Below, one piece after another: positions 846-21,792 of a stretch of DNA of 41,538 bases; the first letter of the stretch is position 1; each line of letters opens with the position of its first letter. The translations under genes were made by a program, and so were the position numbers. The notes beneath the pieces are model-generated. The model worked only from the letters and a program-made list of their open reading frames with translations, was not told the DNA's origin and made no database searches. The DNA lies in NCBI GenBank assembly GCA_045598865.1, contig JAZRVA010000013.1, positions 1 to 41,538 of the forward strand, read 5' to 3'. The DNA is from Clostridia bacterium (GTDB lineage Bacteria; Bacillota; Clostridia; Christensenellales; UBA1242).

Positions 846-886
846 TTGACTTTTTTTTGTTTTAAAAGTTATACTATTTGTATAAT
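846..886 (+). promoter_or_regulatory. Sigma-A-type promoter(s) for the giant surface protein gene
   Basis: TTGACT (846-851), 18 bp, TATACT (870-875). A second -10, TATAAT, lies at 881-886. Confidence 0.55.
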
Positions 887-916
887 TGATGTTCTGCAAA
901 ATACACTTATTTTTAC

Positions 917-932
917 ATGTTCATATGCACAT
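917..932. promoter_or_regulatory. Palindromic candidate operator ATGTTCATATGCACAT in the 5' UTR
   Basis: Matches ATG-NN-CATATG-NN-CAT, also found at 240-255 and 6370-6385. It lies between the promoter and the GGGAG RBS. Confidence 0.5.
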
Positions 933-950
933 GCTAAATGGGGAGTTTTT

Positions 951-3900
951 ATGAAGCGAATTTTAAAAACAATTTTGATATCGTTTCTTTGCGTAATTGG
1001 AGCCGTTGGCCTTTTGGTTGGTGGTTTTTATTTGTTTGGCGGAAACGAAGAAAAAGTGGTTTATGCAGAAGATTTGTATTTTAACATTACAAACACTGTT
1101 GTTGATGGGCCGTTTTCGCTAAAAGTTTCTACGAACACAGAGGGTGTTACAAAAAAGAAAGTAAGGCTGAATGTTTCCACTGGTGGGAATAGAATTTTGG
1201 ATATTCCACAATATGCAAACATAGATGAACCTGTTACAATTTATTTAAAGAAAGATGATAAAAACAATAATGTTGGTGGAAGTGTGCAAATTACTGCAAC
1301 GTATGATGATGATAATGCAAACGTGTCTGCCGTTGGAAAATGTGAAGTTTTGGTTGATGTGGGTGTGGTTTCTGCAACAATTTCTGTTTCTAGTGTTAAT
1401 GTTGTTCCAAAGCAGAGTATTTTGCTTTGCCCAGAAGATGAAGATATTTCTAAGTTGTTAAGCATTTATCCTTTAAAATCTTTAATACCTAACATGTATG
1501 AAGCTAGTGCCTTAAATCCTCAGAAAAAGAAACAAATTTGGATTGAAATGGTGGATTTGGTTACTGGAAATGCTTTGAATTGTGAAAGCACAAATTATGA
1601 TGCAAGGTTTATTGTTAATGGTGAGGAAAAGACTTCCAACATAATTGAAGTTAATTATCATTATGTTAGTTCGCTTAGCAGCCAAGCCGAGCCAAAACTT
1701 GTTTTTGATGACTCTGTTTACATAAAGGCAGGGCAAAGCCCTTGCAGTGTTAAGATTAATGCTTATGTTTGTTCAACCTTTAAAGAACAAGAAAAAATTG
1801 AAACAGAAGAAAAGCCAATAAATCAGGTGGCAACAGTTACGGCCTCCACTGGGTTTGAAATTGGAAATATTCAAATTTCTAATTTTAATTTTGATGATTC
1901 CACCAAAGAAATTTATTTGGATTTGAGAGAGAATAATAACAAGGCAGATGATGACTGCATTAATATTTTTGTTAACAACGAAGATGCTGGCAGTGGTGAT
2001 ATAAACCTTGGGCTTACGCTTGCTTCTAGCTCCGAAGGTGTGGAGATTGGGCAATATTATTTGTGGAACATGTATTTGAGCATTGACAATAAAGATTATA
2101 GGCTACTTTGCAATGGCAACAATGAGAAAGATTCTGAGCTTTTGACGGAATTTGTAAGGCTTAAATATGAAGGCATTTCTAGCTTAAAAGAAGACTGGTG
2201 TTGGAAAATTAAGTTAAACAATTTTTTGGCATACGAAAACGAAACTTTGTTTAACGCTCAACTTAAATACATAGAATATGAGAAAAATTCTGACGGAACA
2301 GAAGATGTAAGCAACATAAAAATTGAATTGCCTGTTCAAACTTTTAGAATTAAACCTATTGTTAATGAGGTAACGAATTTAGATGTTGTTTATAAAGCGC
2401 AGGCGGATGAATCTTTTAGGGTAAAGAGTGGAGAAAAATTTAGTTTGGCTGCAACTGATTTTAGGGTTACGCCGAACACTGCAACATTTGTGAAAGACAG
2501 GACAAATTATTTGCAATATTATTTGTCTGGGGCGGAAAATGATGACCTTTCTGCTTTGCCAAGCGCCTTTGTTAAAGATGTTTATTACAAAGCTACGTTT
2601 AGTTTTACAATAGATGAAAGTGCTAGCATTTATTTGGCAAATTTCTCTTATGGAAACTTGGTTTATTTGTATTTAAAACAACGTGGTTCGGACTTGGAAT
2701 ATTACAAGGACTATGTGGAAAATGATGAATCTTTAAACGAGACGAAACATTTTGACGCAGAGAATATTATAGACGGGTTTATAATTTTTAAAAATAGTGC
2801 TACAACTGCTGTTTTGGAAGAAGAGTTTTCTATTAATTTGGAATTCTGGAAGGAAACATCCACAGAAATATTTGCTGTTAACATCAACAAATTAATTGAT
2901 TATTCTGTGAAAGTTTATGAGGGCACAACCTATGAAAGCACGAAGGATGTTGTTAAGGGCTTTTCTAATTTCCCTTATCTTAGCGTTGATGGGTTGAGGT
3001 ATTACGCCGATTTTGATTATACAATTTATGATGCGGACCCAAGTGTTAAGTATTTAAGGTTGAAAAAATTTGCAGAATTTGAATCCAACTTAACCGCAGA
3101 AGAGGAAGCAAAGGTTTTTGAAATTGATGGCATTGGCAAGTTTACTATAACGGCGATTTTGGTTTTTGAGGACGTTGACGGGACGATTTATTGGTTAGAT
3201 AAAAGTTGTTTGGTTGATGTGGAAGTGTATCAAACGCTAAATTCTATTGTGGCTTATTCCTCAAAAGATGGTGGTGTGTTTGAAACAAACTACACAGAGA
3301 ACGACGAGAATAAATATTGGGTTTATGTTTCATCTAGCACAATGGACGTGCTTAAAAACTATGTGGATTACAACAAGCTTGAAGTTGGGTTTAACCAAAT
3401 TTTTGACGCAGACGCTTTAATAAATCAGCAGATTATTGACGAACACGAGGGGATAGAAAATATTAATGCTGACGCTATTATTTTTGACAGCAACTGGACG
3501 GCCGTTTATGACGAGGGCGTGCTGGTTGGGTTTAAAATTGGTTACACAATTAATGAAGTTAAAACAATTAATATTGGTTTGACGGAATACTCGCCTAAGT
3601 TTGAGATTTTTGTTAGAGTTAAAGTGGATGAAGAATATGTTTACTGCAACTTCTGCAACAATGAAGTGGGTGGTGTTAAAGATTTTGAAACTGGGAAGTT
3701 GACCGTAAACATAAAAGACGGCGTTGTTACAGAATCTTTTGTGTTATATGATGGCAATGCAAAAACACAGAGTGAGCCACTTGTTATTTACGCTTCGGTT
3801 GATAGTAACAAGGTTGTTTATCAAAACTTTAACGATGCGGATTTGAGTTATGGGTTTAAGAACGCTGATTCATCACTAAAAACAACAAACACATTAGACC

Positions 3901-5585
3901 TTGAACCATTAAATTGCAACAAAAACATTAATTTTACTGAACTCTACAATTTTGAGAGAAAAGATAATGGCATAGGTGGTTTGAGCTTTAAAAACATTCC
4001 TTATTATGATGACGGTGTTTTGGTTGAAATGGGTGTGAGTTCTTCAACAATAATGTCGTTTAATAGTTATTGGAAGTGGAACGGAACGGGTTTTGAAGAG
4101 ACGATGTATGATTTGACAAGCAGTATTTTTATTAAAATTTATGGGCTTGATATAACCATTACAGACAAAGAAAACGAAGTTAAAGGCAAAAAAGATGAAG
4201 AAGTTGACTTGTTTGGTTCTGGCGGATTGTTTGGCATAACCGTTAAGGGTGGAAGTTCTAAAACAACTTATACATCTATAAATGATTACTCAAACATTTT
4301 GGCGGTTAATAGTTTTAATAAGAACTTGGTGGTAAATGATAGCCTTACAAAAGTTACAATTAAACAAGATATTTTGCAAGACACATTGGCAAGCTTTAGG
4401 TTTGATGCGGGTGCTTTATCTGAAAGAAACTCTATTAAAGTAAATGGTAATTCGCAGGCAAGCGTGAGTGTGGTTTCTCCTTTTGTTGTAACATATACAG
4501 TAGGGTTTGATTGCCCAAATACTAATCAGCAATTTTATGAACTAACATATGATGGCTCTGCTGATTTGCCTGAGAATATTTCTACAATACTTTCTATTGT
4601 TCCATACAAAATTGATGGGACAGACGATGATTCGGGTGATTATTACAAAGATTTAAGTGGCAATGTGATTAATGATATTGCAAACTTGGCGACTCTTAAT
4701 GAAGATAAGACATTAAACTTTAAAACATACACTAAGGCCTATTGTTTTAATTTGAAATTTCAGATTATTCAAACAATTATTGACGAAGAAACAGAAGAAG
4801 AAACTAATAATTCAACATCTTCAATTTACAGATTAGTAACTATTACACCTATTTTGGAAGATACAGATTTGGTGGTTGGCACTTTTGACAATGTTAATAA
4901 TAAGTATTATTTAACCTCTGGTGAAACTTATTCTTTTGTTGATGGTGGAATAACGTATGGCACTAACTTTACACCGGAAATAAAAGACATGGTTAACTCT
5001 TTGCAGATTACTGCCGAAGATTTAAGCGAATTAACAGAAGATGACTGCGCAACGGTTGACAAACATGTTAAAATTGTTATTCCAACAAATGTTAGTGGAA
5101 AGCAGAAGATGGAAGGGTTTTCTATTGGCTTATATGACTTGAATTTTGACAAAGATGTTAAGTTTACATTTACATTTACGTTTAGTGATGGCGGATATTA
5201 CGTGTTTGAAAAAGTGGTTGAAATAAGAAAGAACACAGAGATTAACCTAAATCAAACAACACTGATAATTGGTGATGCTAACAACAATTACATAAAATTA
5301 AACGATGACAATGCTTATTTTGTTACAATTAGCGGAGCTCCTGCAAGCATTGACTTTGCAAATAAATTTTCTTTTGAAGGTGAAGACCCTAACACTTATA
5401 GTGAGAACAGCTTTGAATTTGATTCCACAATATTCTCGCCGGGGAAAGTTATGAGCACGTATAGGATTACATTAATTGGCACGCAACCAGGGGAGACTCA
5501 AATTAAATTTAAATACAAAGTTGAAGGCAACCAAGAATATATTCTTACGTTTGTGTTTAATGTGGAAATTGTTAATGCAGCTTAA
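951..5585 (+). CDS. Very large (~1544 aa) acidic, beta-rich extracellular protein with an N-terminal membrane anchor; function unknown
   Basis: GGGAG RBS at 941-945 places the start at ATG 951 rather than 846. One N-terminal TM (ILISFLCVIGAVGLLVGGFYLF); the rest is hydrophilic, rich in Asn/Asp/Glu/Thr/Tyr, with an alternating beta-strand pattern. Confidence 0.8.
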   Translation: MKRILKTILISFLCVIGAVGLLVGGFYLFGGNEEKVVYAEDLYFNITNTVVDGPFSLKVSTNTEGVTKKKVRLNVSTGGNRILDIPQYANIDEPVTIYLKKDDKNNNVGGSVQITATYDDDNANVSAVGKCEVLVDVGVVSATISVSSVNVVPKQSILLCPEDEDISKLLSIYPLKSLIPNMYEASALNPQKKKQIWIEMVDLVTGNALNCESTNYDARFIVNGEEKTSNIIEVNYHYVSSLSSQAEPKLVFDDSVYIKAGQSPCSVKINAYVCSTFKEQEKIETEEKPINQVATVTASTGFEIGNIQISNFNFDDSTKEIYLDLRENNNKADDDCINIFVNNEDAGSGDINLGLTLASSSEGVEIGQYYLWNMYLSIDNKDYRLLCNGNNEKDSELLTEFVRLKYEGISSLKEDWCWKIKLNNFLAYENETLFNAQLKYIEYEKNSDGTEDVSNIKIELPVQTFRIKPIVNEVTNLDVVYKAQADESFRVKSGEKFSLAATDFRVTPNTATFVKDRTNYLQYYLSGAENDDLSALPSAFVKDVYYKATFSFTIDESASIYLANFSYGNLVYLYLKQRGSDLEYYKDYVENDESLNETKHFDAENIIDGFIIFKNSATTAVLEEEFSINLEFWKETSTEIFAVNINKLIDYSVKVYEGTTYESTKDVVKGFSNFPYLSVDGLRYYADFDYTIYDADPSVKYLRLKKFAEFESNLTAEEEAKVFEIDGIGKFTITAILVFEDVDGTIYWLDKSCLVDVEVYQTLNSIVAYSSKDGGVFETNYTENDENKYWVYVSSSTMDVLKNYVDYNKLEVGFNQIFDADALINQQIIDEHEGIENINADAIIFDSNWTAVYDEGVLVGFKIGYTINEVKTINIGLTEYSPKFEIFVRVKVDEEYVYCNFCNNEVGGVKDFETGKLTVNIKDGVVTESFVLYDGNAKTQSEPLVIYASVDSNKVVYQNFNDADLSYGFKNADSSLKTTNTLDLEPLNCNKNINFTELYNFERKDNGIGGLSFKNIPYYDDGVLVEMGVSSSTIMSFNSYWKWNGTGFEETMYDLTSSIFIKIYGLDITITDKENEVKGKKDEEVDLFGSGGLFGITVKGGSSKTTYTSINDYSNILAVNSFNKNLVVNDSLTKVTIKQDILQDTLASFRFDAGALSERNSIKVNGNSQASVSVVSPFVVTYTVGFDCPNTNQQFYELTYDGSADLPENISTILSIVPYKIDGTDDDSGDYYKDLSGNVINDIANLATLNEDKTLNFKTYTKAYCFNLKFQIIQTIIDEETEEETNNSTSSIYRLVTITPILEDTDLVVGTFDNVNNKYYLTSGETYSFVDGGITYGTNFTPEIKDMVNSLQITAEDLSELTEDDCATVDKHVKIVIPTNVSGKQKMEGFSIGLYDLNFDKDVKFTFTFTFSDGGYYVFEKVVEIRKNTEINLNQTTLIIGDANNNYIKLNDDNAYFVTISGAPASIDFANKFSFEGEDPNTYSENSFEFDSTIFSPGKVMSTYRITLIGTQPGETQIKFKYKVEGNQEYILTFVFNVEIVNAA

Positions 5586-5606: not shown

Positions 5607-6326
5607 ATGAATTTGTTTGAAAATCAAAATTATTACAACAAGGAAGAATATGACAAACTAAGTTATGACGACCAAAAGGAACTTTTTATTAGGATAAGGT
5701 CTTGGGTGGCTACGGCTGACAATGACATAAGGTATAACAAAGAGAGATTTAAGAACCTTGTTATTAAAAAAATTGAACAAATTTGCGCCTATGCTTGTTC
5801 TGGGCATATTCCTTCCCAGGATTATATGGGATACATATACAAAAGAGGGTTTGATGAGTTTTTTCCGGTGAACTACAAAAGGTCGCTGGAATGGAACATT
5901 GTTGCTGCTGCAAATTGCAGCAAACTTGCTCCTCAAAAAATGAAAACTTTTATGAACCCTGCCATTGACATGATTATGATGAGTGAAAGGTGGGGGCAAA
6001 TTATTAAGTATAACGACCTTAATTTATCTAACTACTTTTGGTTTTTAAGCCAATATGTTTGCGATATTTTGTATAAAGAGTTGGATTTAAACCCTGTGGA
6101 GATGGCAAAGAAAGATTTGATTGAAGAAGACACAAACGAAAGGCGAACAAGAATATTTTTTGACAGGTTCCGTGACAGGAGTGTTGAAAAGGCAATAGAG
6201 GTTTTGATTAAGCAATTGCCAGAAGACATGCCTGTTGAAGAGGAAGAAGGGTTTGGTGAAGATTTGCTTAAAGATGAGAATGGCAACGACCCAGACGACA
6301 TTGACGTTAATATTGAAGATATTTAA
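5607..6326 (+). CDS. Hypothetical protein with a Sel1-like repeat and an acidic C-terminal tail
   Basis: AAGGAG RBS. 'GHIPSQDYMGYIYKRG...VNYKRSLEWNIVAA' fits a Sel1 repeat. It starts 21 bp after the giant gene, so is likely in the same operon. Confidence 0.7.
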   Translation: MNLFENQNYYNKEEYDKLSYDDQKELFIRIRSWVATADNDIRYNKERFKNLVIKKIEQICAYACSGHIPSQDYMGYIYKRGFDEFFPVNYKRSLEWNIVAAANCSKLAPQKMKTFMNPAIDMIMMSERWGQIIKYNDLNLSNYFWFLSQYVCDILYKELDLNPVEMAKKDLIEEDTNERRTRIFFDRFRDRSVEKAIEVLIKQLPEDMPVEEEEGFGEDLLKDENGNDPDDIDVNIEDI

Positions 6327-6420: not shown

Positions 6421-7011
6421 GTGGAAAATTTTATGATTTTTGCTTCGGGAAACAACTACAAAGTTAAACAGATAAAAGATTTGTGCAAAGGAAAAGTTGA
6501 TATTTGCGGGCTTAAAGATGTGAATATTAGCATTGAGGTGGAGGAAGATGGTGCAACGTTTGAAGAAAACGCAAAAAAGAAAGCTCTTGCAATTTTTAAC
6601 TTAACTCACGAGGAAGTTTTGGCTGATGATAGTGGGCTTTGCATAGATATTTTTGATGGTTGGCCGGGTGTTTACACTCACAGGTTTATTCCAAATTCCA
6701 CGGCAGAGGAAAGGAACAAAGAAATTCTTGAAAAGATGCAAAACGTTGATGACTCGCTTAGGGGGGCAAAGAACATTTGCGTTTTATGTTACTGCAACAA
6801 ACAAGGCGAAACGAAGATTTATAAAGGCGTTGTGAAGGGCAGTATTGCAAAAAGTCCTAAGGGGGACAATGTGTTTGGTTTTGACCCGATTTTTTTGCTT
6901 GAAAACAATAAAACTTTGGCAGAGCTTAGTGACGAAGAAAAAATTACTGTAAATGCCCGGAGCCTTGCATTTAAGGCATTTTTGCAGGACTATGAAGAGC
7001 AAAAAAGATAA
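6421..7011 (+). CDS. rdgB: HAM1/RdgB-family non-canonical purine NTP pyrophosphatase
   Basis: FASGN, EEDGATFEENAKKKA, ADDSGL, PGVYT, FGFDPIF motifs. An alternative start is ATG 6433, with RBS AAGGTGG. Confidence 0.9.
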   Translation: MENFMIFASGNNYKVKQIKDLCKGKVDICGLKDVNISIEVEEDGATFEENAKKKALAIFNLTHEEVLADDSGLCIDIFDGWPGVYTHRFIPNSTAEERNKEILEKMQNVDDSLRGAKNICVLCYCNKQGETKIYKGVVKGSIAKSPKGDNVFGFDPIFLLENNKTLAELSDEEKITVNARSLAFKAFLQDYEEQKR

Positions 7012-7019
7012 ATTTTGTA

Positions 7020-7048
7020 TTGACAAAATTCGCCGTTTATTTTAGTAT
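7020..7048 (+). promoter_or_regulatory. Sigma-A promoter of metK
   Basis: TTGACA (7020-7025), 17 bp, TAGTAT (7043-7048). Confidence 0.8.
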
Positions 7049-7054
7049 TATTAT

Positions 7055-7149
7055 ACCTATAAAGAGTGTGTGAGGGACAAGCCCGTTTGTAGCACACAGC
7101 AACCTAACAAATACTGTTTGTTAAGGTGCTAATGCTTGTATGATGGGAT
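7055..7149 (+). ncRNA. SAM-I (S-box) riboswitch aptamer, variant lacking P4
   Basis: P1 CCTAT...ATGGG, AAGAG, P2 GTGTG...GAGGGA...GCCC...CACAC, AGCAACC...AAGGTGCTAA core. Located directly upstream of metK. Confidence 0.9.
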
Positions 7150-7164
7150 AATATTTTTAGGTTT

Positions 7165-7193
7165 AAAAAAATCCCACGTTTGTGGGATTTTTT
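7165..7193 (+). terminator. Riboswitch expression-platform terminator
   Basis: aaaaaatcccac-gttt-gtgggatttttt. The P1 3' strand TGGGAT can alternatively pair with ATCCCA to form an antiterminator. Confidence 0.85.
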
Positions 7194-7213
7194 GTTTTAA
7201 AAGGAAAGATTTT

Positions 7214-8311
7214 ATGAAAAAGATTGTTACTAGTGAAAGTGTTAATTGTGGGCACCCAGACAAGACATGCGATTTAATTGCAGACAGTTTTTTGGATGAA
7301 GCTTTGAAGGTGGACCCAACATCTCAGATGGCTGTGGAGTGCGCCATAAAAAATGATGTTTTGATGATTTATGGTGAGGCTACAACAAAGGCAGACATTG
7401 ATTATGATGCCGTGGCAAAAAGAGTTTTGAAAAACGTGGGTTACACCAACGATTTTAAAATTATAAAGGAACTTTCTTGCCAATCTCCTAACATTGCAAA
7501 CGCGGTAAAGCAAGAAGAACTTTGTGCAAACGATCAGGGCATTATGTTTGGTTATGCAACTAACGAAAATAGATACTACATGCCATATTCCATTGTAATT
7601 GCGCACAAATTGGTTGAAAAATATGATGAATACAGGCGCAAAACGGACTGCTATTTTGCTGATGCAAAAAGTCAGGTTTCAATTGAATATGAAAACGACA
7701 AGCCAAAGAGTATAAACACGATTTTGCTTTCTGTTTCTCACAAAAAGGGTTTGCCACATACAAAGATTGTTGAGGATATGAAAAGTTTTGTGATAAAACC
7801 TGTGCTTGAAATGTTTGCAGAATTAGATAACGCCAACACAAAATTTATTATTAACCCGAGTGGGGAGTTTTATATTTGGGGTAGTTTTTCGGATAGCGGT
7901 TGTGTTGGCAGAAAAATTGTGGTTGACACATATGGTGGAGTAGGCAGAGTTGGTGGGGGATGTTTTAGCTCTAAAAACGCAACAAAGGTTGACAGGAGTG
8001 GGGCATATTATGCAAGGTATGTGGCAAAGAATTTGGTTGCAAACAATTTGTGTGACAAGTGCGAAATTGGGCTTAGTTATGCCATAGGACTTAAAGGGCC
8101 TATTAGCATAGAAATTAACACCTTTGGCACAGAAAAGGTGAGCCTTAATGGGATTTATGAAATTGTAAAAAACAACTTTGATTTTACAGTTCAAAGCATG
8201 ATTGACGAGCTTGACTTGCTTAAACCAATTTATGCCAAAACTGCTTGTTATGGGCACTTTGGCAGAGAGGAATTTCCTTGGGAAAAGGTGAAGAAGTTAA
8301 AAATTAAGTAA
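7214..8311 (+). CDS. metK: S-adenosylmethionine synthetase (divergent)
   Basis: TSESV..GHPDK, DQG, GRKIVVDTYGG, KVDRSGAY, YGHFGR. RBS AAGGA supports ATG 7214. Confidence 0.93.
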   Translation: MKKIVTSESVNCGHPDKTCDLIADSFLDEALKVDPTSQMAVECAIKNDVLMIYGEATTKADIDYDAVAKRVLKNVGYTNDFKIIKELSCQSPNIANAVKQEELCANDQGIMFGYATNENRYYMPYSIVIAHKLVEKYDEYRRKTDCYFADAKSQVSIEYENDKPKSINTILLSVSHKKGLPHTKIVEDMKSFVIKPVLEMFAELDNANTKFIINPSGEFYIWGSFSDSGCVGRKIVVDTYGGVGRVGGGCFSSKNATKVDRSGAYYARYVAKNLVANNLCDKCEIGLSYAIGLKGPISIEINTFGTEKVSLNGIYEIVKNNFDFTVQSMIDELDLLKPIYAKTACYGHFGREEFPWEKVKKLKIK

Positions 8312-8339
8312 TTGATTAATATATTAATTCAACAAATCT

Positions 8340-8377
8340 AAATATATTTGACTATTTTAAATATGTTTAACTATTTT
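8340..8377. repeat. Tandem 19-bp imperfect direct repeat
   Basis: aaatatatttgactatttt / aaatatgtttaactatttt (2 mismatches). Confidence 0.55.
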
Positions 8378-8467
8378 AAAAAGAGATTAACAATGTGGTT
8401 GGGGTTATTTTTGGCAATAATGAAATGAATTAAAACAATTTTAATATTTAAATATAATTTTTAACAA

Positions 8468-8507
8468 CAAAAAAAAGAATCTTTAAAAACAAAGGTTCTT
8501 TTTTTTG
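8468..8507. terminator. Bidirectional intrinsic terminator between metK and the TIR gene
   Basis: caaaaaaaaagaatcttt-aaaaac-aaaggttctttttttg, with an A tract on one side and a T tract on the other. Confidence 0.75.
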
Positions 8508-8515
8508 AATTTTTA

Positions 8516-10420
8516 TTATTTCTCAAATGCTTTTTTTACAAGAGAAATTGTGTTCCCGTTTATTTCGGCGGATTGAGGCCTTGCTGGATTATTTGTTATT
8601 AAACTATACCCATATTGAGAACCTTGATATTGTAACCCTATTTCATTTTCATCACTGGTATAATATATTGTAATATTTCTATTTAAAGAAAATAGCCCAA
8701 AAGATTCATCAACTAAATCTATAGTTATGGGAAAAAGACTATTGTCGACATAGATTTCTGAGAAACTTGTATTTGTTACCGTTAAAGATGCTCCGCTATA
8801 ATAATTTTTAGGGATTACAATTGTGTCAACAGTTTTTGGTATATAATCATAAGAGCAGTAATATACTGGTGTGTTTTTTATTTCATCTGGCATTACAAAA
8901 TATTCTTTTCCATCTTTTTTGTATATGTAATTCTTGTAAATTTTTGAGTCGTAAGAGCAAATGCTTGCGGCAACCACTGGTGAGCTATTTCCATTTGAAC
9001 CTATGCCGTATGTGTAAGTTCTATAATATAAGCCATTATGATAACTATATGCGTGACCGGTCATTTGACTTGATGTTTTGCCAGAAAGTGTAACTGGAAT
9101 AAACAGCGTACACAAAGCATAAATTCCAACAAAAATAAAACTTAGACTAACAGGCAAAACTGTTTGCACGAACACTTTTAGATTATATCTTCTTGTGTGG
9201 ACAATGGAAGTTATAATTGCTGTTATTAACATAAAAAGGTCTAGAAAAATAATTACATAAAACCCTGTTGATGCGATAAGCCATATGGGTTTGTTGCAAA
9301 GCATAATTAAAGTTGATGCCAAAAGAATAAATGGCAAACTTAAAAACAAATTATAGAAAAATCTTTTTGCTTTTTTGTTTTTATTTGTTTGCAAATCTAC
9401 CCAATTTTTGTGTTTTAATTCCTTTAGTTTTTGTTTTCTTATTTTTTCAAACTCTATAAAGTTGTTAATATCATTAAAAGTTTCTATAACATTTTTTTCT
9501 TCTTGCGGTTTGCAAATTCGCTCTACCGCATCACCAATGGCCACTTCAAAACCAATTTTGGAAGCATCTATGCCCTGAATAAATTGGTTGTTAACTTTGG
9601 GCATATCATAAGGGCTCATGCCTTCAAAAACAGGAATAAAACTGCTGTTTGTTAGGTCTTCCTCATTATTTTTAATTCTTTCTATAAATCTGGACCATTC
9701 GTTTCTTACCCATGGGGACTCCACATTTTCCTTTGAAGTGCCCACTAAAATAAAAATTTTGGAAGTGTGAAGTGCTTTAAAAATTATTGGTTCAAACTCG
9801 TTGCCAAGTTTATTTTCTAGTGTTTTTTGGGCAAAGAATACTTTGTAGTTTCGTTTTACAAGTTCATTATAAATTTGGTTTGCCAAAACGGAATCTTTGG
9901 TTGCTTCGCCATTTTTATTTGTTGATTTGTAAGATAAGAATACATCATATGATTCTTCTTTTTCTAACTGCTTTGAAATTGCATTTTGAAGTTTATCTAT
10001 TTCTTTTGATCTAATTTCAATGGATTCTTTTTGTTCTTCATTTGCGAGTTGCAGAAGGGTTTTGTAATATTCATTTTCGGTTATGCTGGTAAAGTGTGCT
10101 CTGTGGCAAGTGGGAATATATCTGCCTGTGTAAGAATCCTTTACATATTCAATGCCGTATTCAGAGAGCAATATGCCTTCATATGCGGAAAGCTCGTTTG
10201 AATCCTTTTCTAAAACTAGTTGATAGGTTTTGATTGCCAAATCGTAATTAAAACTTTCTCTGTATAATCTTGCTGTGTTGAGTAGAGAAATTATTTCTTC
10301 ATTTTGTTTTGGCATGAGCATGGTTGACGAGCAGTGATTACACTTGCAGATGCCGTTTTCCATTGTTTTTACATCACTAGAACCACAACTTTGACACCTG
10401 ATAACTTTTATATTTTTCAT
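8516..10420 (-). CDS. Zn-ribbon / TPR-like / TIR-domain membrane protein with 3 TM helices and a C-terminal extracellular domain
   Basis: CQSCG...CNHC ribbon; helical 'YDLAIKTYQLVLEKDSNELSAYEGILL'; TIR motifs YDVFLSY, YKVFFA, IFKALHTSKIFILVG, SPWVRNEW; three hydrophobic segments. RBS AAAGGA. Confidence 0.88.
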   Translation of the reverse strand: MKNIKVIRCQSCGSSDVKTMENGICKCNHCSSTMLMPKQNEEIISLLNTARLYRESFNYDLAIKTYQLVLEKDSNELSAYEGILLSEYGIEYVKDSYTGRYIPTCHRAHFTSITENEYYKTLLQLANEEQKESIEIRSKEIDKLQNAISKQLEKEESYDVFLSYKSTNKNGEATKDSVLANQIYNELVKRNYKVFFAQKTLENKLGNEFEPIIFKALHTSKIFILVGTSKENVESPWVRNEWSRFIERIKNNEEDLTNSSFIPVFEGMSPYDMPKVNNQFIQGIDASKIGFEVAIGDAVERICKPQEEKNVIETFNDINNFIEFEKIRKQKLKELKHKNWVDLQTNKNKKAKRFFYNLFLSLPFILLASTLIMLCNKPIWLIASTGFYVIIFLDLFMLITAIITSIVHTRRYNLKVFVQTVLPVSLSFIFVGIYALCTLFIPVTLSGKTSSQMTGHAYSYHNGLYYRTYTYGIGSNGNSSPVVAASICSYDSKIYKNYIYKKDGKEYFVMPDEIKNTPVYYCSYDYIPKTVDTIVIPKNYYSGASLTVTNTSFSEIYVDNSLFPITIDLVDESFGLFSLNRNITIYYTSDENEIGLQYQGSQYGYSLITNNPARPQSAEINGNTISLVKKAFEK

Positions 10421-10565
10421 AATATTCCTTTTTATAACTTTATTTTACTAAAAATATTAAAAATTTCAAACAAAAAATTTTGCATAAAAATTTTAAAAAC
10501 AAAAATTAAAAGTAAATATTTTTTTTTAATTTTCAAACAATAGTTGTGTAGGAGAGTTTAACTTT

Positions 10566-11064: not shown

Positions 11065-12660
11065 ATGAAAAAGAACTCCTTTATATTTGGGGCAATTGTT
11101 TTGGGGCTTAGTGGAATTGTGTGCAAAATTTTGGGCGCGTTTTACAAAATTCCACTTGCTAACATTTTGGGCTCACAGGGCATTGGGATTTATTATTTGG
11201 TTTTTCCTGTTTATGCATTTTTGTTAACTTTAACTTCTGCCAGTTTTACAATTGTTATTTCAAAGAGGGTGTCTAAATGCGTGAGCATTGGGGAGAATGA
11301 AAAGGCCCACAGCACGTTTGTTGCTGCATTTTTTTTGTTGTTAATTCTTGGTGTTGTGGCGAGTGTGTTACTGGTTGTGTTTTCAAAAATAATTGCTGGT
11401 TTGCAGGGGGTGGAAACCAGCTTTGTTTGTTATTTGGTTATTGCGCCTGCAATTTTATTTGTGGCAATTTCTAGCGCTTTTAAAGGGTTTTTTCAAGGCT
11501 TGCAAAACATGCTGCCCACTGCAACTTCGCAAATTTTTGAGCAGGTTATAAAATTATTGATTGGCTTTGTTTTGGCAAAAATGCTTATTAAAAACAGTGT
11601 TGTTTTTGGCGTATTTGGGGCGCTTATTGGTGTTACTATTTCTGAGGGGTTGACAAGTGTTTATTTTGTGATTTGGTATTTGATTTTTAAAAAGAAAAAC
11701 AAAGAATATCGAAATTTTAAATTTAAAATAGATAAAACTATTTTTAAAAAAGAGGCAAAAGGAATTTTAAAAGAATCTGTGCCATTTACATTAAGTTCCA
11801 TAATAATGCCAATGTCTTTAATAATAGATAGTTTTTTGGTGATAAATCTGCTTAAAACCATGAATTTTAACAAAGTTTTTGCAACGACACTTTTGGGGTT
11901 AAATTCGGGTGTGGTTAACACATTGGTTGGGTTGCCTTCTACCATTTCGGTTGCCATCTGCGTGGCTATTGTGCCGTATATTGTTTTTGCTTTAAATCAA
12001 AAGGATTATGCTGCTATTTCTCAAAAGGTGGAACTTGCGCTAAGGTTGTGCGCGTTTGTTTCCTTGCCGTGTGTTTTTTTGTTTTTATTTTTTTCAAAAG
12101 ATATTTTGCTTTTGTTATTTTCTCATAGTTTTTCAAGTGTTTATGAACTTGATGTTGCGGCAAACTTACTGAGCATATCTTGCATAAATGTTTTGTATTT
12201 AACATTTGTGCAAATAACAACTTCTCTTTTGCAGGCGGTTAACAGAAGTTATGTGCCGGTTATTAGTTTGTCGGTTTCACTGTTAATAAAAGTTTTTTTT
12301 GAAGTTGTTTTAATTAGTAACCCATACCTTAACATTGCGGGGGCGGTTGTTTCTAATTGTGTTTGTTACTTTTTATCCTGCTGCATTAATATTGTGTTTT
12401 TTAAGAGGGAAGTGGAAATAAAGTTTTCTGTTTACAAAATGGCTGTTTGCCCGCTGGTTGCAAGCATGGTCATGTGTGCAACTATTGTTGTTTGCAAGCA
12501 GATTTTTGTTAATCTTGCTTTTTTGCCACAGTTTTTAGTTTGTTATTTGCTTGGTGCGGTTGCGTTTTTGGCAGCTATGGCGGCGTTGAAATGTTTTTCA
12601 AAGGAAGAGATGGGTTTGCTGTTTAAAACTAGAAAAAATTTTAAAAAACAAGCTGAATAA
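11065..12660 (+). CDS. SpoVB/YabM-type MATE/MurJ-like polysaccharide or lipid II flippase
   Basis: About 14 TM segments; KILGAFYKIPLANILG, GFFQGLQNMLPTATSQIFEQ; immediately after spoVT. Confidence 0.88.
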   Translation: MKKNSFIFGAIVLGLSGIVCKILGAFYKIPLANILGSQGIGIYYLVFPVYAFLLTLTSASFTIVISKRVSKCVSIGENEKAHSTFVAAFFLLLILGVVASVLLVVFSKIIAGLQGVETSFVCYLVIAPAILFVAISSAFKGFFQGLQNMLPTATSQIFEQVIKLLIGFVLAKMLIKNSVVFGVFGALIGVTISEGLTSVYFVIWYLIFKKKNKEYRNFKFKIDKTIFKKEAKGILKESVPFTLSSIIMPMSLIIDSFLVINLLKTMNFNKVFATTLLGLNSGVVNTLVGLPSTISVAICVAIVPYIVFALNQKDYAAISQKVELALRLCAFVSLPCVFLFLFFSKDILLLLFSHSFSSVYELDVAANLLSISCINVLYLTFVQITTSLLQAVNRSYVPVISLSVSLLIKVFFEVVLISNPYLNIAGAVVSNCVCYFLSCCINIVFFKREVEIKFSVYKMAVCPLVASMVMCATIVVCKQIFVNLAFLPQFLVCYLLGAVAFLAAMAALKCFSKEEMGLLFKTRKNFKKQAE

Positions 12661-12689
12661 AAAGCTTGTTTTGTGTAAATATTTCTACT

Positions 12690-12956
12690 ATGAATAAAAA
12701 AGAATTTATTGGGTTGTTGAGTAATAGAACAAATTTAAGTGCTAGCAGATGCAACGCGCTGCTAAGTGAAATTAAGGGGCTTATTGTTGAAAGTTTGAAA
12801 ACTGGGGAAGAAGTTAAATTTGCTGGCTTTGGCAGGTTTTTTGTGAAATACAAAAAAGAGCAAATTTGTTGTTTTAAAAATGGCACAAGGTTGCTGCCTG
12901 CAAAAAACGTTGCAAAATTTACGGCGTCAAAATGTTTTAAAAACATTGTAAGATAA
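12690..12956 (+). CDS. hup: HU/IHF-family DNA-binding protein (divergent)
   Basis: MNKKEFI start, GEEVKFAGFGRF, PAKNVAKFTASKCFK; conserved position in the spoVT cluster. Confidence 0.8.
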   Translation: MNKKEFIGLLSNRTNLSASRCNALLSEIKGLIVESLKTGEEVKFAGFGRFFVKYKKEQICCFKNGTRLLPAKNVAKFTASKCFKNIVR

Positions 12957-12974
12957 CAAAAAAAATGTTAAAAT
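12946..12974 (+). promoter_or_regulatory. Sigma-A promoter of dusB (leaderless)
   Basis: TTGTAA (12946-12951), 17 bp, extended TG-n-TAAAAT (12966-12974). ATG follows 6 nt later with no SD. Confidence 0.65.
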
Positions 12975-12980
12975 TTTTTT

Positions 12981-13919
12981 ATGTTTATTAAAGATGTGGA
13001 AATTAAGAACAATTTGCTTTTAGCGCCCATGGCAGGAATAACTGATGTTGCGTTTAGGACTTTATGCAAAGAAAATGGGGCGGGGTTAACCTGCACAGAG
13101 ATGGTTAGTGTTAAGGGCCTTTTTTACAAGAGCAAAAATACTTTTAAGCTTCTTGAAACCTCAGATATTGAAAAGCCAGCGGCGGTTCAACTTTTTGGGC
13201 ATGAGCCAGAAATATTTGAGAAGGTTTTAAAAAGTGGGTGCTTAGACAAATTTGATATTATAGACATTAACATGGGTTGTCCCGCACCAAAAATTGTAAA
13301 AAACTTTGATGGCAGTGCAATACTAAAAGATTTTGAACTTGCAAGGGCAATAATAAAAACGTGCGTTAATTCTACAACCAAGCCAATTACTGTTAAATTT
13401 AGGAAAGGGTTTGAGAAAAATGACGACTTTTTGATTGAATTTGCAAAATTGTGTGAGGAGTGCGGTGCAAGTGCAATAACCATTCACCCAAGAACGAGGG
13501 CGCAAATGTTCTCTGGGAGTATTGATATTGAAGACATAAAAAAGGTTAAAGAGGCTGTTAAAATCCCCGTTATTGCAAGTGGGGATATTGTGGACAAATC
13601 TTCTTACGAAAAGATTTTAAAAAGCGGCTGTGATGGTGTGATGATTGGTAGGGCAAGCCTTACAAATCCGCAGATATTCAACGAGCTTTTGCTTGGCAAA
13701 AAGCAGAAAACCCAACTTGAAATTGTGAAAAGGCATTTGCAACTTTTAAAGATGTATTACCCAGAGGAGGTTATTGCAAAAAATTTTAAGAAACATGCCC
13801 TTTATTATTTAAGTGGTTTTAAAAATGCAACACAGGCAAAGAGGGAGGTTGTTTTAAAACAAACTTTGCCAGAAATTGAAGAGATTTTGTTTGATTTTTT
13901 TGAAAACGAAAAAGAATAG
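12981..13919 (+). CDS. dusB: tRNA-dihydrouridine synthase DusB
   Basis: LAPMAGITD, TEMVS, VQLFG, DINMGCP, TIHPRT, GVMIGRA. Confidence 0.93.
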   Translation: MFIKDVEIKNNLLLAPMAGITDVAFRTLCKENGAGLTCTEMVSVKGLFYKSKNTFKLLETSDIEKPAAVQLFGHEPEIFEKVLKSGCLDKFDIIDINMGCPAPKIVKNFDGSAILKDFELARAIIKTCVNSTTKPITVKFRKGFEKNDDFLIEFAKLCEECGASAITIHPRTRAQMFSGSIDIEDIKKVKEAVKIPVIASGDIVDKSSYEKILKSGCDGVMIGRASLTNPQIFNELLLGKKQKTQLEIVKRHLQLLKMYYPEEVIAKNFKKHALYYLSGFKNATQAKREVVLKQTLPEIEEILFDFFENEKE

Positions 13920-13923
13920 ATTT

Positions 13924-13952
13924 AAGCAATCACAATAGTGGTTGCTTTTTTT
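13924..13952 (+). terminator. Intrinsic terminator
   Basis: aagcaatcac-aata-gtggttgctt followed by a T tract. Confidence 0.85.
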
Positions 13953-14089
13953 GAAATTTAACTTAATAAAAAAAGAAAACAAAAATTAGAAAGTGGTTAA
14001 AATTTATATACAAATTTTTGTAAAATTGATAAAATACTATGTATTAAAATACATTATTAATAAACAATTGTTTTAAAAGGATATTTATA

Positions 14090-15274
14090 ATGAAAAAGAG
14101 TATAAAAGATATTGATGTTAAAGGTAAAAAGGTTTTGTTAAGGCTTGACCTTAATGTTCCACTTAACAAACAAACTGGTGAGATTTCTGATGATACTAGG
14201 ATTATGGAATCACTTTCTACCATTAACTATTTGTGTGATAATGGTGCAAAGGTTATTATTTGCTCGCACCTTGGCAGGCCAGAAGGTGTTGACAAAAAGT
14301 TTTCTTTAAAGGTTGTGGCAGACAGGCTTGCAAAAATTTTGAAGAATAAGGTTTATTTTAGCACAGACACAGTTGGTGATGATGCAAAGGCAAAGGTTAA
14401 AACATTGGAAGATGGCGAAGTTTTGCTTTTGGAAAACCTAAGATTTGACAAAAGAGAAGAGGAAAATGATGAAAAGTTTTGCAAAGAACTTGCCAAACTT
14501 GCCGACATTTATGTTAACGATGCTTTTGGAACTGCTCACAGAAAACATGCATCTACTTATGGCGTTGCAAAGTTGCTACCAAACGCTGTTGGGTTTTTGA
14601 TGAACAAAGAAATTAAGGTTATAACTGAAATTTTGGAAAATCCAAAAAGACCTTTTGTGGCAATTTTGGGTGGGGCTAAAATTAAAGATAAAATTCCTGT
14701 TATTGAAAATTTGATTAACAAGGCAGATACAATTTTGATTGGTGGCGGCATGGCTTACACTTTTGTGAAGGCACTTGGCGGCGAAGTGGGGAGCTCTCTT
14801 GTTGACGATGAAAAACTTGACCTTGCTAAAAAACTTGTAAAAAAGGCAAAGGATAAAAATATCAACTTTATTTTGCCGGTTGACAACGTTTGCAACAAAG
14901 AATACACAAACGATGGAAAACCTAAAAAGTTTGCTTCAAACAAAATACCAAATGATTATATGGGGCTTGATATTGGGCCAAAAACAGTTAAAATTTTTAA
15001 GAAATACATTAAAAATGCTGGAACAATTGTTTGGAACGGGCCACTTGGTGTTTTTGAATTTTCTAAATTCTGCAAAGGAACAAACAGCATTGCAAAGGCA
15101 ATTGGAAAAACAAAAGCGTTTTCCTTTATTGGCGGGGGAGACAGCGCATCTGCAATAATAAAATCTGGCTATGCAAAGAGGGTAAGCCACATTTCAACAG
15201 GTGGAGGAGCTAGTTTGAATATGCTTGAAGGTAAAATTTTGCCGGGTGTTGACGTTATATCGGAAGTAAAATAA
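14090..15274 (+). CDS. pgk: Phosphoglycerate kinase
   Basis: [53 protein letters not shown]. Confidence 0.98.
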
Positions 15275-20698: not shown

Positions 20699-20838
20699 AT
20701 AAATAATTTATAAATAATAAAGCAAAAAAGTATTGTTTTTGTTGCTCTTAAACATAATTTAATTTTTATGTTTTTTGTTTTAAACATATATTTTTTGTTT
20801 TTTTGCAAAAACTAAAACTAATAAAAGGAGTTTTAGTT

Positions 20839-21792
20839 ATGAAAAAAAGATTTTTAAGCGCATTTTTATGCTTTTGTTTTTTAGTACTTTCTTGCTTTGT
20901 TTTGGGTGCTTGTGATGAACAACCACAACCAGAAGCTCCAATTTTGCAAGAAAACTTTGCAATGATTGGCAACACTGTTTACAAAAATTTTGCGGAGGCT
21001 GTTAGCGCAGTTCCGTTTAATGGCGAGCAAACCACCATAAAACTTGTTTCCAATGCAACAGGTGGCGGAAGCAAGGTGAACGAAGGTGAATCTTTAGAAA
21101 ACTACCAAAACATTGTTTTTGACTTTAATGGCTTTACTTACTATATGGATCAACCAACCGTGGGATCTGCTGGCACAGAAACAAATGGGTTTCAGCTTTT
21201 GCAAGGGGGAAAGGTTACGTTTAAAAATGGAAGGTTGCAGAATAAACCAAGAGGTGCAAAAATTATGCTTCAAAACTACTGTGATTTAACTTTGCAAGAT
21301 TTTACTGTTGACAACTCTAAATCAGAAAGTTTTGTTGACGAAAATAACAAAAATCAGGTTTATGGCCAATATGCAGTGAGCAATAATTTTGGATCTTTGA
21401 CGGTTAAGGGCAACAGCAACATTATTGCAAGAGAAAATTTTGTTGCGTTTGACCTTTGGTTTGGTTTAAAAGACAAATACAAAACAGGGGTAAATGTTAA
21501 CATAGACCCAACCTTTACTGGCAGTGTGTATGGTAAAATAGAATATGGTTGCTCTAACACAAGAGGAGTAGAAAATTGGAGAGAATTAACTAATTTGGAA
21601 ATAAATGCAGGCAATTTTTATGACTTTTCGCTTGCAAGTTCTAGCACAAATGCATTAGAAGGGGCATCGATTAGCATAAAGGGAGGCAAGTTTGTTTTGG
21701 CTGAAAACACAACATTTGATCAGAGCTTTGTGCCTTCTGGATGCTCTGCAAGGCAAGATGGCAACACATGGATTGTGGTTAAGAATGCTTAA
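20839..21792 (+). CDS. Putative lipoprotein with a beta-helix-like extracellular domain
   Basis: AAGGAG RBS gives ATG 20839. MKKRF + hydrophobic stretch + LGA-C lipobox. Short Gly/Asn-rich beta repeats (VTFKNG, LTLQD, LTVKG, LEINAGNF, ISIKGGKF). Confidence 0.78.
   Translation: MKKRFLSAFLCFCFLVLSCFVLGACDEQPQPEAPILQENFAMIGNTVYKNFAEAVSAVPFNGEQTTIKLVSNATGGGSKVNEGESLENYQNIVFDFNGFTYYMDQPTVGSAGTETNGFQLLQGGKVTFKNGRLQNKPRGAKIMLQNYCDLTLQDFTVDNSKSESFVDENNKNQVYGQYAVSNNFGSLTVKGNSNIIARENFVAFDLWFGLKDKYKTGVNVNIDPTFTGSVYGKIEYGCSNTRGVENWRELTNLEINAGNFYDFSLASSSTNALEGASISIKGGKFVLAENTTFDQSFVPSGCSARQDGNTWIVVKNA

Follow-up and report, generated by a model that had tools for sequence, protein, structure and literature searches.

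A TIR protein with three predicted transmembrane helices and a mosaic, LRR-like outer domain in a gut Clostridia genome

The gene and its setting

We analyzed a stretch of 41,538 nucleotides (nt), called here the window, which spans positions 1 to 41,538 of contig JAZRVA010000013.1 in the Clostridia bacterium assembly GCA_045598865.1. It holds a gene for a protein with a TIR domain (8516..10420, minus strand), flanked on one side by metK, which has three S-adenosylmethionine synthetase domains, and on the other by a SpoVT-type gene with a MazE/AbrB N-terminus and a SpoVT_C domain. The open reading frame (ORF) starts with ATG and encodes 634 residues plus a stop codon. We call its product P0001. 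Upstream of the ATG only 8 more codons are open, and the homologs begin at the same methionine. In the interval 38-22941, the TIR gene is the sole minus-strand ORF of at least 120 residues that lies outside longer plus-strand ORFs. An earlier note on this DNA had described it as standing alone against the local orientation between metK and spoVT, which is confirmed by ORF and domain scans. What is new here is that the 345 cytoplasmic residues of this protein are conserved, while its transmembrane (TM) helices and ectodomain are mosaic.

Domain architecture

Residues 157-300 (9521..9952, minus strand) are identified as a TIR domain by Pfam, Foldseek, and VIA-align. The Pfam family TIR_2 (PF13676) matches residues 160-287 (nt ~9560-9943) with an E-value of 8.5e-11 and 42.8 bits for a cut-off of 28, and PF01582 is likewise above its cut-off (27.1 vs 21.3). 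We modeled residues 1-350 with AlphaFold2 (AF2) from an alignment of 75 relatives, which gave a mean predicted local distance difference test (pLDDT) of 86. For this model, VIA-align found 124 chains at Z >= 8, with TIR domains on top. The TIR aligns with that of SARM1 at Z 14.4, over 122 residues and with a root-mean-square deviation (rmsd) of 2.3 A, and scores high with MyD88 (14.3), TIR-STING (14.1), TIR-SAVED (11.6), ThsB (10.7 and 9.2), the SpbK filament (10.4), and Cat1 (10.2). Foldseek gave E-values of ~1e-4 to the TIRs of SARM1, AbTir (7uxu, 1.6e-4), TIR-STING, RUN1, and SPARTA, and a probability of 1.00 for many TIRs.

The TIR carries a glutamate, Glu241 (codon 9698..9700, minus strand), within the motif W237-V-R-N-E241-W. 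It is invariant in the 41 full-length homologs (41/41) and in the 75 wider relatives (75/75), and all 120 relatives among the matches listed, from several phyla, have the W-x3-E motif (120/120). Glu241 aligns with the glutamate of the plant TIR motif S-x-W-C-L-x-E-L (3jrn, 3ozi), and the solved TIRs nearest by sequence are plant TIRs with this same residue. We take the glutamate of the W/C-x3-E position, which comes after strand beta-C, to be the catalytic residue of TIRs that cleave NAD+. The earlier note had placed a TIR at ~9520-9955 and the glutamate of WVRNEW at codon 9698-9700: the TIR_2 match lies inside this range, and the glutamate is the invariant residue 241. In the genome of the organism itself, which has 949 kb in 65 contigs and is 95.7% complete, the TIR of P0001 is the only one to pass the cut-off. 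A TIR_2 match below the cut-off (20.8 bits), at the N-terminus of a 409-residue ORF on contig C7, was rejected as a TIR. From its sequence, this ORF may encode a CinA-type protein.

The part before the TIR starts with a predicted Zn-ribbon (residues 1-38; 10307..10420, minus strand), with the cysteines C9-x2-C12...C27-x2-C30 and, in the AF2 model, strands at residues 17-19, 24-27, and 33-35. All four cysteines are invariant in 41 of 41 full-length homologs. The 75 wider relatives share C12, C27, and C30 without exception, and at least 90% of them have C9. TPR-like helices follow (residues 39-88; 10157..10306, minus strand), modeled at 41-55, 59-72, and 77-87. In P0001 itself, the Pfam TPR families gave only matches below threshold (TPR_6, residues 45-73, E 0.018, 16.1 bits for a cut-off of 26.3), but relatives pass the cut-offs at the aligned position, with TPR_14 in P0099 (34.4 vs 23.5), TPR_2 in P0070 (35 vs 27), and TPR_1 as well. 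One TPR protein is in the fold list for residues 1-350, matched over residues 41-150 with a Z of 9.2, a weak score among helical folds. The CxxC...CxxC ribbon described in the earlier note is present, and so is its TPR-like helix pair, with subthreshold scores in P0001 itself.

Next comes a beta-hairpin (residues 89-112; 10085..10156, minus strand; strands 90-94 and 101-105) with the invariant residues G89-I-E-Y92...P103-T-C-H-R107..F110. It is followed by helices (residues 113-156; 9953..10084, minus strand), including a long one, at 128-153, that runs into the TIR in the AF2 model. We found no named family for the module before the TIR: ESM Atlas gave only unnamed Bacillota proteins of ~160-178 residues, and the VIA-align list for residues 1-350 was filled by TIR matches, so that the fold of residues 1-156 was barely probed. 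After the TIR, residues 301-352 (9365..9520, minus strand) have a pLDDT <50 at 309-319 and then a helix rich in Lys and Arg (321-345) up to the membrane, with 8 such residues in 330-352. The same genome encodes a second protein with a similar CxxC...CxxC ribbon and helices, at the start of contig C1 (1-570, minus strand), which matches residues 5-71 with an E-value of 1.3e-4. This protein has no TIR in its first 190 residues, and its ORF leaves the contig end.

Three hydrophobic helices occupy residues 353-446 (9083..9364, minus strand). A Kyte-Doolittle scan places them at 354-375, 380-407, and 416-445, with a basic loop, HTRRYNLK, between TM2 and TM3. Their span, nt ~9086-9361, is close to the ~9095-9360 of the earlier note. 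Three hydrophobic segments were also found by hydropathy scan in 65 of the 120 relatives listed. We counted charges in the first 45 listed homologs: 43 have three segments after residue 300, and two were skipped (one fragment and one protein with two segments). In all of the 43 (43/43), Lys and Arg are more numerous in the putative inside loops (before TM1 and between TM2 and TM3) than in the outside ones (between TM1 and TM2 and after TM3), with means of 4.14 + 2.84 vs 1.40 + 0.91. Since loops rich in Lys and Arg face the cytoplasm, according to the positive-inside rule, this bias suggests that the N-terminus is inside and the C-terminus outside. The Zn-ribbon and the TIR, which come without a signal peptide, are consistent with a cytoplasmic N-terminus. 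The ectodomain has a lower fraction of charged residues than the cytoplasmic part (0.21 vs 0.30) and a higher fraction of Y, S, T, N, and G (0.37 vs 0.27). The arrangement that the earlier note had deduced from an odd number of TM helices, with the TIR inside and the C-terminus outside, is thus supported by computation: P0001 is predicted to have a cytoplasmic Zn-ribbon, TPR-like, and TIR part, three TM helices, and an outside C-terminus.

The predicted ectodomain

Residues 447-634 (8519..9082, minus strand) are predicted to be an extracellular, all-beta, LRR-like solenoid, which is hypervariable and mosaic. These 188 residues include 23 Y, 22 S, 15 T, and 15 N (75/188), in agreement with the Tyr/Ser/Thr/Asn-rich C-terminus of ~190 residues noticed before. 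An AF2 model of residues 440-634, made from a 40-row alignment, is all-beta, with a pLDDT of 82 and a predicted template modeling score of 0.80. We compared it with 48161 chains using VIA-align. The top match, with Z 7.2 over 117 residues (rmsd 3.6 A), is the leucine-rich Faecalibacterium cell-surface protein 4gt6; next come 4oju (Z 7.0), TpLRR 6mlx (6.9), 4fs7 (6.7), and PcpA 4cp6 (5.3). These five matches cover 105-132 residues with an rmsd of 3.2-4.4 A. Four of them are bacterial LRR or surface proteins by their entry title, and 4cp6 is titled a vaccine antigen. We take PcpA to be an LRR protein too, and presumably all five (4gt6, 4oju, 4fs7, 6mlx, and 4cp6) are of the BspA type, i.e., Pfam LRR_5. 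The other 45 rows shown are mostly LRR proteins of many kinds (Z 3.4-4.7).

Sequence comparisons did not recover this family. LRR_5 had no Pfam match in the whole of P0001 at E <= 1, nor in any of ten ectodomains at E <= 10 (0/10). The ectodomain profile found no LRR structure among the PDB sequences, and ESM Atlas features gave no usable match for the ectodomain. Using hhalign against P0099, a relative that bears LRR_5, we obtained a probability of 8%. The alignment paired GKEYFVMPDEIKNTPVYY...IPKTVDTIVIPKN, the stretch chosen by the earlier note, with the start of the LRR_5 region of P0099. This stretch holds the pattern F-x-x-P-x-x-I-x-x-x-x-V ... I-P-x-x-V-D-x-I-V-x-P-K, which is conserved in the ectodomains. 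A Foldseek search of the ectodomain against viral models had a best E-value of 0.039 and gave no sign of a phage receptor-binding fold. The worn BspA/LRR_5-like ectodomain of the earlier note thus stands in part: the nearest structures are bacterial surface LRR proteins, but membership in LRR_5 was not found by sequence. We describe the modeled fold as apparently LRR-like, with bacterial surface LRR proteins as its nearest neighbors, and claim no family membership.

We also searched 1.84 billion representative proteins with a profile of ten ectodomains and found 20 proteins at E <= 1e-3. Fourteen of these are members or fragments of the TIR family, or short fragments. The remaining six (P0128, P0129, P0131, P0133, P0134, and P0135) are repeat proteins of 880-1250 residues that share only the conserved stretch described above, the core unit of the ectodomain, ~40 residues long, which recurs 3-5 times in each. 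The three repeat proteins that we read (P0128, P0133, and P0134) have signal peptides. Pfam families were absent from the 15 proteins newly found by this profile.

Mosaic alleles

To describe how the regions of the protein vary, we computed mean pairwise identities among the 41 full-length homologs. The identity is 0.61 in the Zn-ribbon, 0.79 in the TPR-like helices, 0.84 in the hairpin (PTCHRAHF), which is the stretch of highest conservation, and 0.78 in the TIR. It is 0.29 in the TM region and 0.23 in the ectodomain. The earlier note had proposed to compare homologs for a constant Zn-ribbon/TPR/TIR part and varying ectodomains, and this is what the identities show (0.61-0.84 vs 0.23); the domains after the TM helices also differ among relatives.

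Allele pairs with 98-100% identity over residues 1-345 share only 25-72% in the outside part. In windows of 20 residues, the identity changes in steps, not slopes, from 1.00 to 0.25-0.45 at one of two places. In the pairs P0026/P0033, P0005/P0031, and P0007/P0017, it drops from 1.00 to about 0.35 at the start of TM1 (residues ~355-361); in the pairs P0009/P0019 and P0020/P0025, the drop is from 0.9-1.0 to 0.35-0.6 and comes just after TM3 (residues ~444-460). Five of the seven groups with N-termini at least 95% identical hold at least two types of ectodomain. The DNA behaves in the same way: two orthologous loci, L026 and L030, are 82-97% identical up to nt 1076 and ~50% identical beyond, and their 300 nt upstream are 75-82% identical. 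Strains thus exchange the outside half by recombination, sometimes together with the TM helices and sometimes without them, and the breakpoints fall at domain borders.

A search with the C-terminal halves (tblastn, in the window and 17 loci) revealed no orphan C-terminal cassettes outside the main genes. We considered whether the gene belongs to a polymorphic-toxin locus and rejected this idea: the swapping is real, but the stop codon of the TIR gene lies 204 nt from metK, there are no orphan cassettes, and the variable part is modeled as a solenoid and is no known toxin.

Flanking signals and distribution

A Shine-Dalgarno-like AAGGA (10426..10430, minus strand) was read from the sequence 5 nt 5' of the ATG, and a promoter-like TTGAAA-16 nt-TAAAAT with 10 of 12 matches (10442..10469, minus strand) lies 22 nt 5' of it. 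In this AT-rich stretch, the number of promoter-like sites (14) is close to that of shuffled sequences (12.1 +/- 3.6), and the evidence is weak. The gene had been credited with its own promoter: the site at 10469-10442 exists, but the frequency of such sites is indistinguishable from shuffles. Between the convergent ends of metK and the TIR gene, there is an A/T-rich palindromic hairpin of 17 pairs (8468..8507), likely a two-way terminator by prediction. The terminator proposed before thus has a hairpin to match, yet it too is weak evidence, because shuffles hold as many (1 found vs 1.0 +/- 1.1).

The largest ORF of the window (846-5585, plus strand; 1579 residues) matched neither a Pfam family (E <= 0.1) nor a PDB sequence (E <= 0.01). 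Another genome, G008, has an ORF of 1603 residues with Chlamydia PMP repeats a few genes away from its TIR homolog. Four further plus-strand ORFs of the window (5607-6326, 38-814, 20803-21792, and 22384-22941; 185-329 residues) had no Pfam match at E <= 1e-5 and only chance-level ones at E <= 0.1.

We found homologs of the gene in 6 of the 100 other family genomes sampled (~1 Mb) and in neither of the two from the genus (0/2), where metK and spoVT lie on separate contigs in both cases. Its N-terminal module is present in 22 of the 299 genomes sampled across the class. The close homologs occur in unrelated housekeeping contexts: one lies between relA and dnaI-dnaB, and another has an M16 peptidase gene as neighbor. 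Among the 12 loci of close homologs, no conserved neighbor gene was found. Searches with tblastn gave 0 matches in 50,697 phage records, and IMG/VR has 3 loci. The 100 family genomes sampled range from 0.8 to 1.6 Mb and represent a strongly reduced lineage of gut Clostridia that retains spoVT- and spoVB/MurJ-like genes.

The wider family and its neighbors

Among 8000 candidates scored, 852 relatives were found at E <= 1e-3. The wider relatives are 35-47% identical over the ~300 N-terminal residues and have the same cysteines and the motif WV(R/K)NEW. Of the 120 relatives listed, 110 have one or more hydrophobic segments after the TIR, and some of the remainder are fragments. Relatives have one or more TM helices, and extra TPRs. 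In 36 divergent members scanned for domains after the TM helices, we found LRR_5 (P0099, E 6e-17), RCC1_2 (five), DUF6273 (three), SH3_3 (two), DUF6591, weak PASTA and GW, FtsK_gamma, and SHOCT. LRR_5 and SH3_3 are typically extracytoplasmic. In the subfamily of P0001, with three TM helices and a solenoid of ~150-190 residues, the gene stands alone, with none of the linked genes common among wider relatives. The proteins occur in many families of gut and rumen Clostridia, and a scattering of records comes from Erysipelotrichaceae, Acholeplasmataceae, Synergistaceae, Sphaerochaetaceae, and Bacteroides; the close relatives were all recovered as bins from gut or rumen. The Zn-ribbon/TPR/TIR proteins are a large, unnamed membrane family of gut Firmicutes, whose members databases call "TIR domain-containing protein".

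We clustered the neighbors of the gene in 75 loci. Tandem TIR paralogs are common, and 36 of the 75 loci have a Band_7_1 (SPFH) gene next to the TIR gene and on its strand, usually with a gene for a four-TM protein of ~235 residues. All of these are distant loci (36/63), with none among the close ones (0/12). The Band_7_1 proteins beside TIR genes often carry Zn-ribbons or SHOCT. The partners of the distant relatives had no PADLOC match.

Some of these neighborhoods deserve mention in their own right. The Band_7_1, four-TM, and TIR-TM genes (L038 7864-11112; L066 3471-8964; L084 3646-9840; L058, L047, L076, L087, and others) may be an unnamed three-gene module, and in L038 a cyclic-nucleotide (cNMP)-binding protein follows the Band_7_1 and TIR genes. 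Two genomes of the same family as ours encode distant TIR-TM homologs of 800-930 residues with 42-43% N-terminal identity (L021 4147-10815 in G084; L022 3807-9759 in G040). In both, the flanks hold in the same order an AAA ATPase, two unassigned proteins of ~200 residues, a protein of 133 residues, and a Band_7_1 protein. The ATPase of L021 is IetA-like (PADLOC E 1.5e-41). Finally, locus L020 (G054) has two divergent TIR-TM paralogs ~3 kb apart, of 760 residues (6886-9168, minus strand) and 735 residues (11937-14144, plus strand), and ~1 kb downstream a helicase-nuclease of 1239 residues (HRDC, DUF4011, AAA_11/12, and MTES_1575 endonuclease).

Comparison with known systems

The earlier note had called the architecture Toll-like-receptor-type. 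Like animal Toll-like receptors (TLRs), P0001 would join an outside LRR-type solenoid, a membrane span, and an inside TIR on one polypeptide. The likeness extends to the expected activation, a ligand-driven approach of the TIRs, and to the fold of the domain, since the TIRs of MyD88, TIRAP, and the IL-1R type score at Z 13-14. However, the order is reversed. A TLR has a signal peptide, an N-terminal LRR, one TM helix, and a C-terminal TIR, whereas P0001 has an N-terminal TIR, a C-terminal LRR-like part, three TM helices, and no signal peptide. Unlike TLRs, it has an additional Zn-ribbon/TPR/hairpin module and keeps the catalytic-type glutamate; the TIRs of TLRs act as scaffolds. Its LRR-like part is short, with ~4 rungs counted from the model strands, and is nearer to bacterial surface LRR proteins than to TLR-type LRRs. 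The nearest structures to the ectodomain model are BspA-type LRR_5 surface proteins, although P0001 has no LRR_5 profile match and its Z-scores are below 8. The TLR likeness is thus a convergence of architecture, not membership in a family.

We found no description in the literature of a bacterial TIR protein with a TM span and an extracellular LRR or other ectodomain, but supplements may list such proteins. In the available portion of a 2024 study of E. coli TIR systems (PMC11350192), bacterial TIR systems are said to lack, as it seems, the TM and LRR features known from TLRs, and the portion available of PMC7075850 mentions no such TIR-TM-ectodomain architecture, which its supplements may list. 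SpbK, the one-gene TIR systems of E. coli, and AbTir resemble P0001 in being stand-alone TIRs with a catalytic-type glutamate and no linked effector. According to excerpts of the respective papers, some of the E. coli systems carry TM or TPR parts (PMC11350192), and SpbK senses a cytoplasmic phage protein, YonE (PMC12847820). These single-protein systems sense cytoplasmic phage proteins and none has been described with an extracellular domain, whereas the variable and presumed sensor part of P0001 would be outside.

TIR-STING, TIR-SAVED, the Pycsar/Pucsar TIR, and Cat1 also fuse a sensor to a TIR, which, in the extracts available, is activated by a ligand-driven filament or oligomer. They respond to cytoplasmic nucleotides, which a partner cyclase or CRISPR supplies, whereas P0001 has no partner gene and its candidate sensor is extracellular. 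With ThsB and ThcB4 of Thoeris, P0001 shares the TIR fold, but it falls far under the ThcB4 cut-off and has no ThsA-like neighbor. To our knowledge, ThsB has no TM helix or ectodomain. By the tests run on its sequence, P0001 is a TIR_2 member and was not recognized as a Thoeris, CBASS, Pycsar, or PADLOC-listed system.

Proposed function and alternatives

We tentatively propose, with somewhat less than even confidence, that P0001 is a one-component surface sensor whose clustering switches on the cleavage of NAD+ by its TIR. The 350 N-terminal residues would be in the cytoplasm, followed by the three TM helices and, outside, by the LRR-like solenoid of ~190 residues. A multivalent ligand would gather the ectodomains. 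It would most likely be a phage receptor-binding structure, or a surface molecule of a competitor or of the host. Clustering would bring the TIRs into an oligomer in the active state, NAD+ would be cleaved, and the cell would halt growth or die before the invader profits. No partner protein would be required. The outside half is repeatedly swapped between strains, as expected of a surface module engaged in an arms race, and a ligand from an antagonist would explain this turnover of alleles. There are precedents for the two parts of this mechanism in the portions available of the following works: TIR enzymes are activated by multimerization (PMC9402430, 10.64898/2026.09.16.751991), and single-protein TIR antiphage proteins exist (SpbK, PMC12847820; PMC11350192).

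A stronger version of the sensor is possible, though we regard it as rather doubtful. It makes P0001 a surface immune receptor, in which the recombining, allele-rich LRR-like ectodomain captures a phage tail structure or a surface structure of a rival, the TIRs are forced together through the three TM helices, and NAD+ collapses before or during entry. This would be outside-in pattern recognition, assembled in bacteria independently of the TLR but with its two components. The wider family would then be a receptor toolkit with interchangeable outside domains (LRR_5, RCC1, DUF6273, and SH3_3).

Several observations weigh against a surface sensor of this kind. The structural matches of the ectodomain are middling, as Z is at most 7.2, none reaches 8, and values below 8 are common without a true relative; Foldseek against the PDB gave nothing significant (best E 0.29). 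The topology rests on a crude hydropathy scan and the positive-inside rule. In one relative, P0093, FtsK_gamma, which is normally cytoplasmic, comes after three predicted TM helices: either the TM prediction is off, or the position after the TM helices is not always outside. The hypervariability may also reflect pressure from host antibodies on a surface protein. The surroundings of the gene are of the housekeeping type (metK, spoVT, a MurJ/SpoVB-like gene, dus, and glycolysis genes), with no defense island, and the sole match in PADLOC-DB 2.0.0 is the generic TIR model PDC-S66 over the TIR (E 2.3e-6, 25 bits). The organism is known from metagenome bins alone. Finally, the Band_7_1 linkage points to membrane-state sensing over ligand capture in the wider family.

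This linkage is central to the best of the alternatives, which we nevertheless consider unlikely: the protein would sense the state of the envelope. The outside domain would then only tether the protein to the wall or surface. Its TM helices, joined in relatives by SPFH partners, would pick up a change of the membrane or wall itself (damage, depolarization, or lysin attack), with NAD+ cleavage or signaling still as the output of the TIR. Besides the Band_7_1 genes next to TIR genes in nearly half of the loci clustered (36/75), usually with the four-TM protein of ~235 residues, the distant copies in the same genome family lie between an AAA ATPase and a Band_7_1 gene, and our genome has two Band_7_1 genes, unlinked to the TIR gene. 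An SPFH protein of B. subtilis, YdjI/SamI, takes part in the surveillance of membrane stress according to the available parts of PMC8581546 and PMC13713150. The TM helices are swapped along with the ectodomain in several allele pairs, and relatives have SH3_3 and, weakly, GW and PASTA after their TM helices. These three domains bind the cell wall. On the other hand, neither the window nor any of the 12 loci of close homologs has the Band_7_1/four-TM pair beside the gene, and a mere tether needs no replacement of alleles at such a rate. The LRR-like, RCC1, and DUF6273 modules are also seen more often in ligand binding than in attachment to the wall.

The variability would be read differently if P0001 were an adhesin, or a protein for cell-cell recognition, of a reduced bacterium that depends on a host or partner. 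It would bind mucus, a partner cell, or kin, vary under antibody or partner pressure, and use its TIR to adjust the metabolism of its own cell, with no immune role. We find this quite unlikely. It fits the small size of the genome (949 kb at 95.7% completeness) and of those of the whole family (~1 Mb), the origin of all close relatives in gut or rumen bins, and the nearest structures, which come from LRR proteins on the surface of gut and oral bacteria. It also fits the six large repeat proteins, the only ones outside the family to share the ectodomain core, with signal peptides in the three read. Yet an adhesin has no need for a conserved cytoplasmic enzyme module of 350 residues, which is the part of highest conservation (0.78-0.84 identity) and has an invariant catalytic-type glutamate, and a gene missing from 94 of 100 family genomes is not core to the lifestyle.

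The TIR could also be a signal maker similar to that of Thoeris, producing a messenger derived from ADP-ribose for an effector encoded elsewhere, with no depletion of NAD+. The best NCBIfam match is indeed ThcB4 of type III Thoeris (E 6e-7), two ThsB folds are matched at Z 10.7 and 9.2, and TIR domains often make signaling nucleotides, as far as the available part of 10.64898/2026.04.20.719644 goes. However, the ThcB4 score is 28.6 bits for a cut-off of 220, and neither the window nor any close relative has a candidate effector beside the gene. The neighborhoods of close relatives share no gene. The earlier note had seen no ThsA-like effector (SIR2, or TM/Macro, with SLOG) beside the gene, which agrees with the neighbors being metK and spoVT; SIR2_2 was not found in the 95.7%-complete genome, in which other ThsA-type domains were not searched. 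We give this option a slim chance. A non-enzymatic scaffold, with a TIR for assembly alone as in the animal TLR adaptors and a Zn-ribbon/TPR/hairpin part that recruits a cytoplasmic partner, is very improbable, for although the TIRs of MyD88, TIRAP, and the IL-1R family score level with that of SARM1 (Z 13.4-14.3) and the hairpin and TPR near the N-terminus vary less than the TIR does, as for a binding surface, the W-x3-E glutamate in 120 of the 120 relatives listed, from several phyla, is hard to explain without catalysis, and the solved TIRs nearest by sequence, those of plants, have the same glutamate.

Significance

The known bacterial TIR systems sense in the cytoplasm, where they respond to phage proteins, nucleotides, or guide-target duplexes. 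If P0001 is a surface sensor, a TIR enzyme wired to a hypervariable outside domain would add the cell surface as a place of sensing. It would also be a natural, convergent counterpart of the TLR. The natural alleles that differ only in their outside half would offer a built-in route to map the specificity for ligands, and the conserved Zn-ribbon/TPR/hairpin module would be an uncharacterized regulator of the TIR domain. Even as an adhesin with a metabolic switch and nothing more, the protein would mark out a protein family that is large and has no name. Members of this family are frequent among gut Clostridia and have been retained in genomes of ~1 Mb, and they may thus shape the relations between phages and hosts, or between cells, in the gut.

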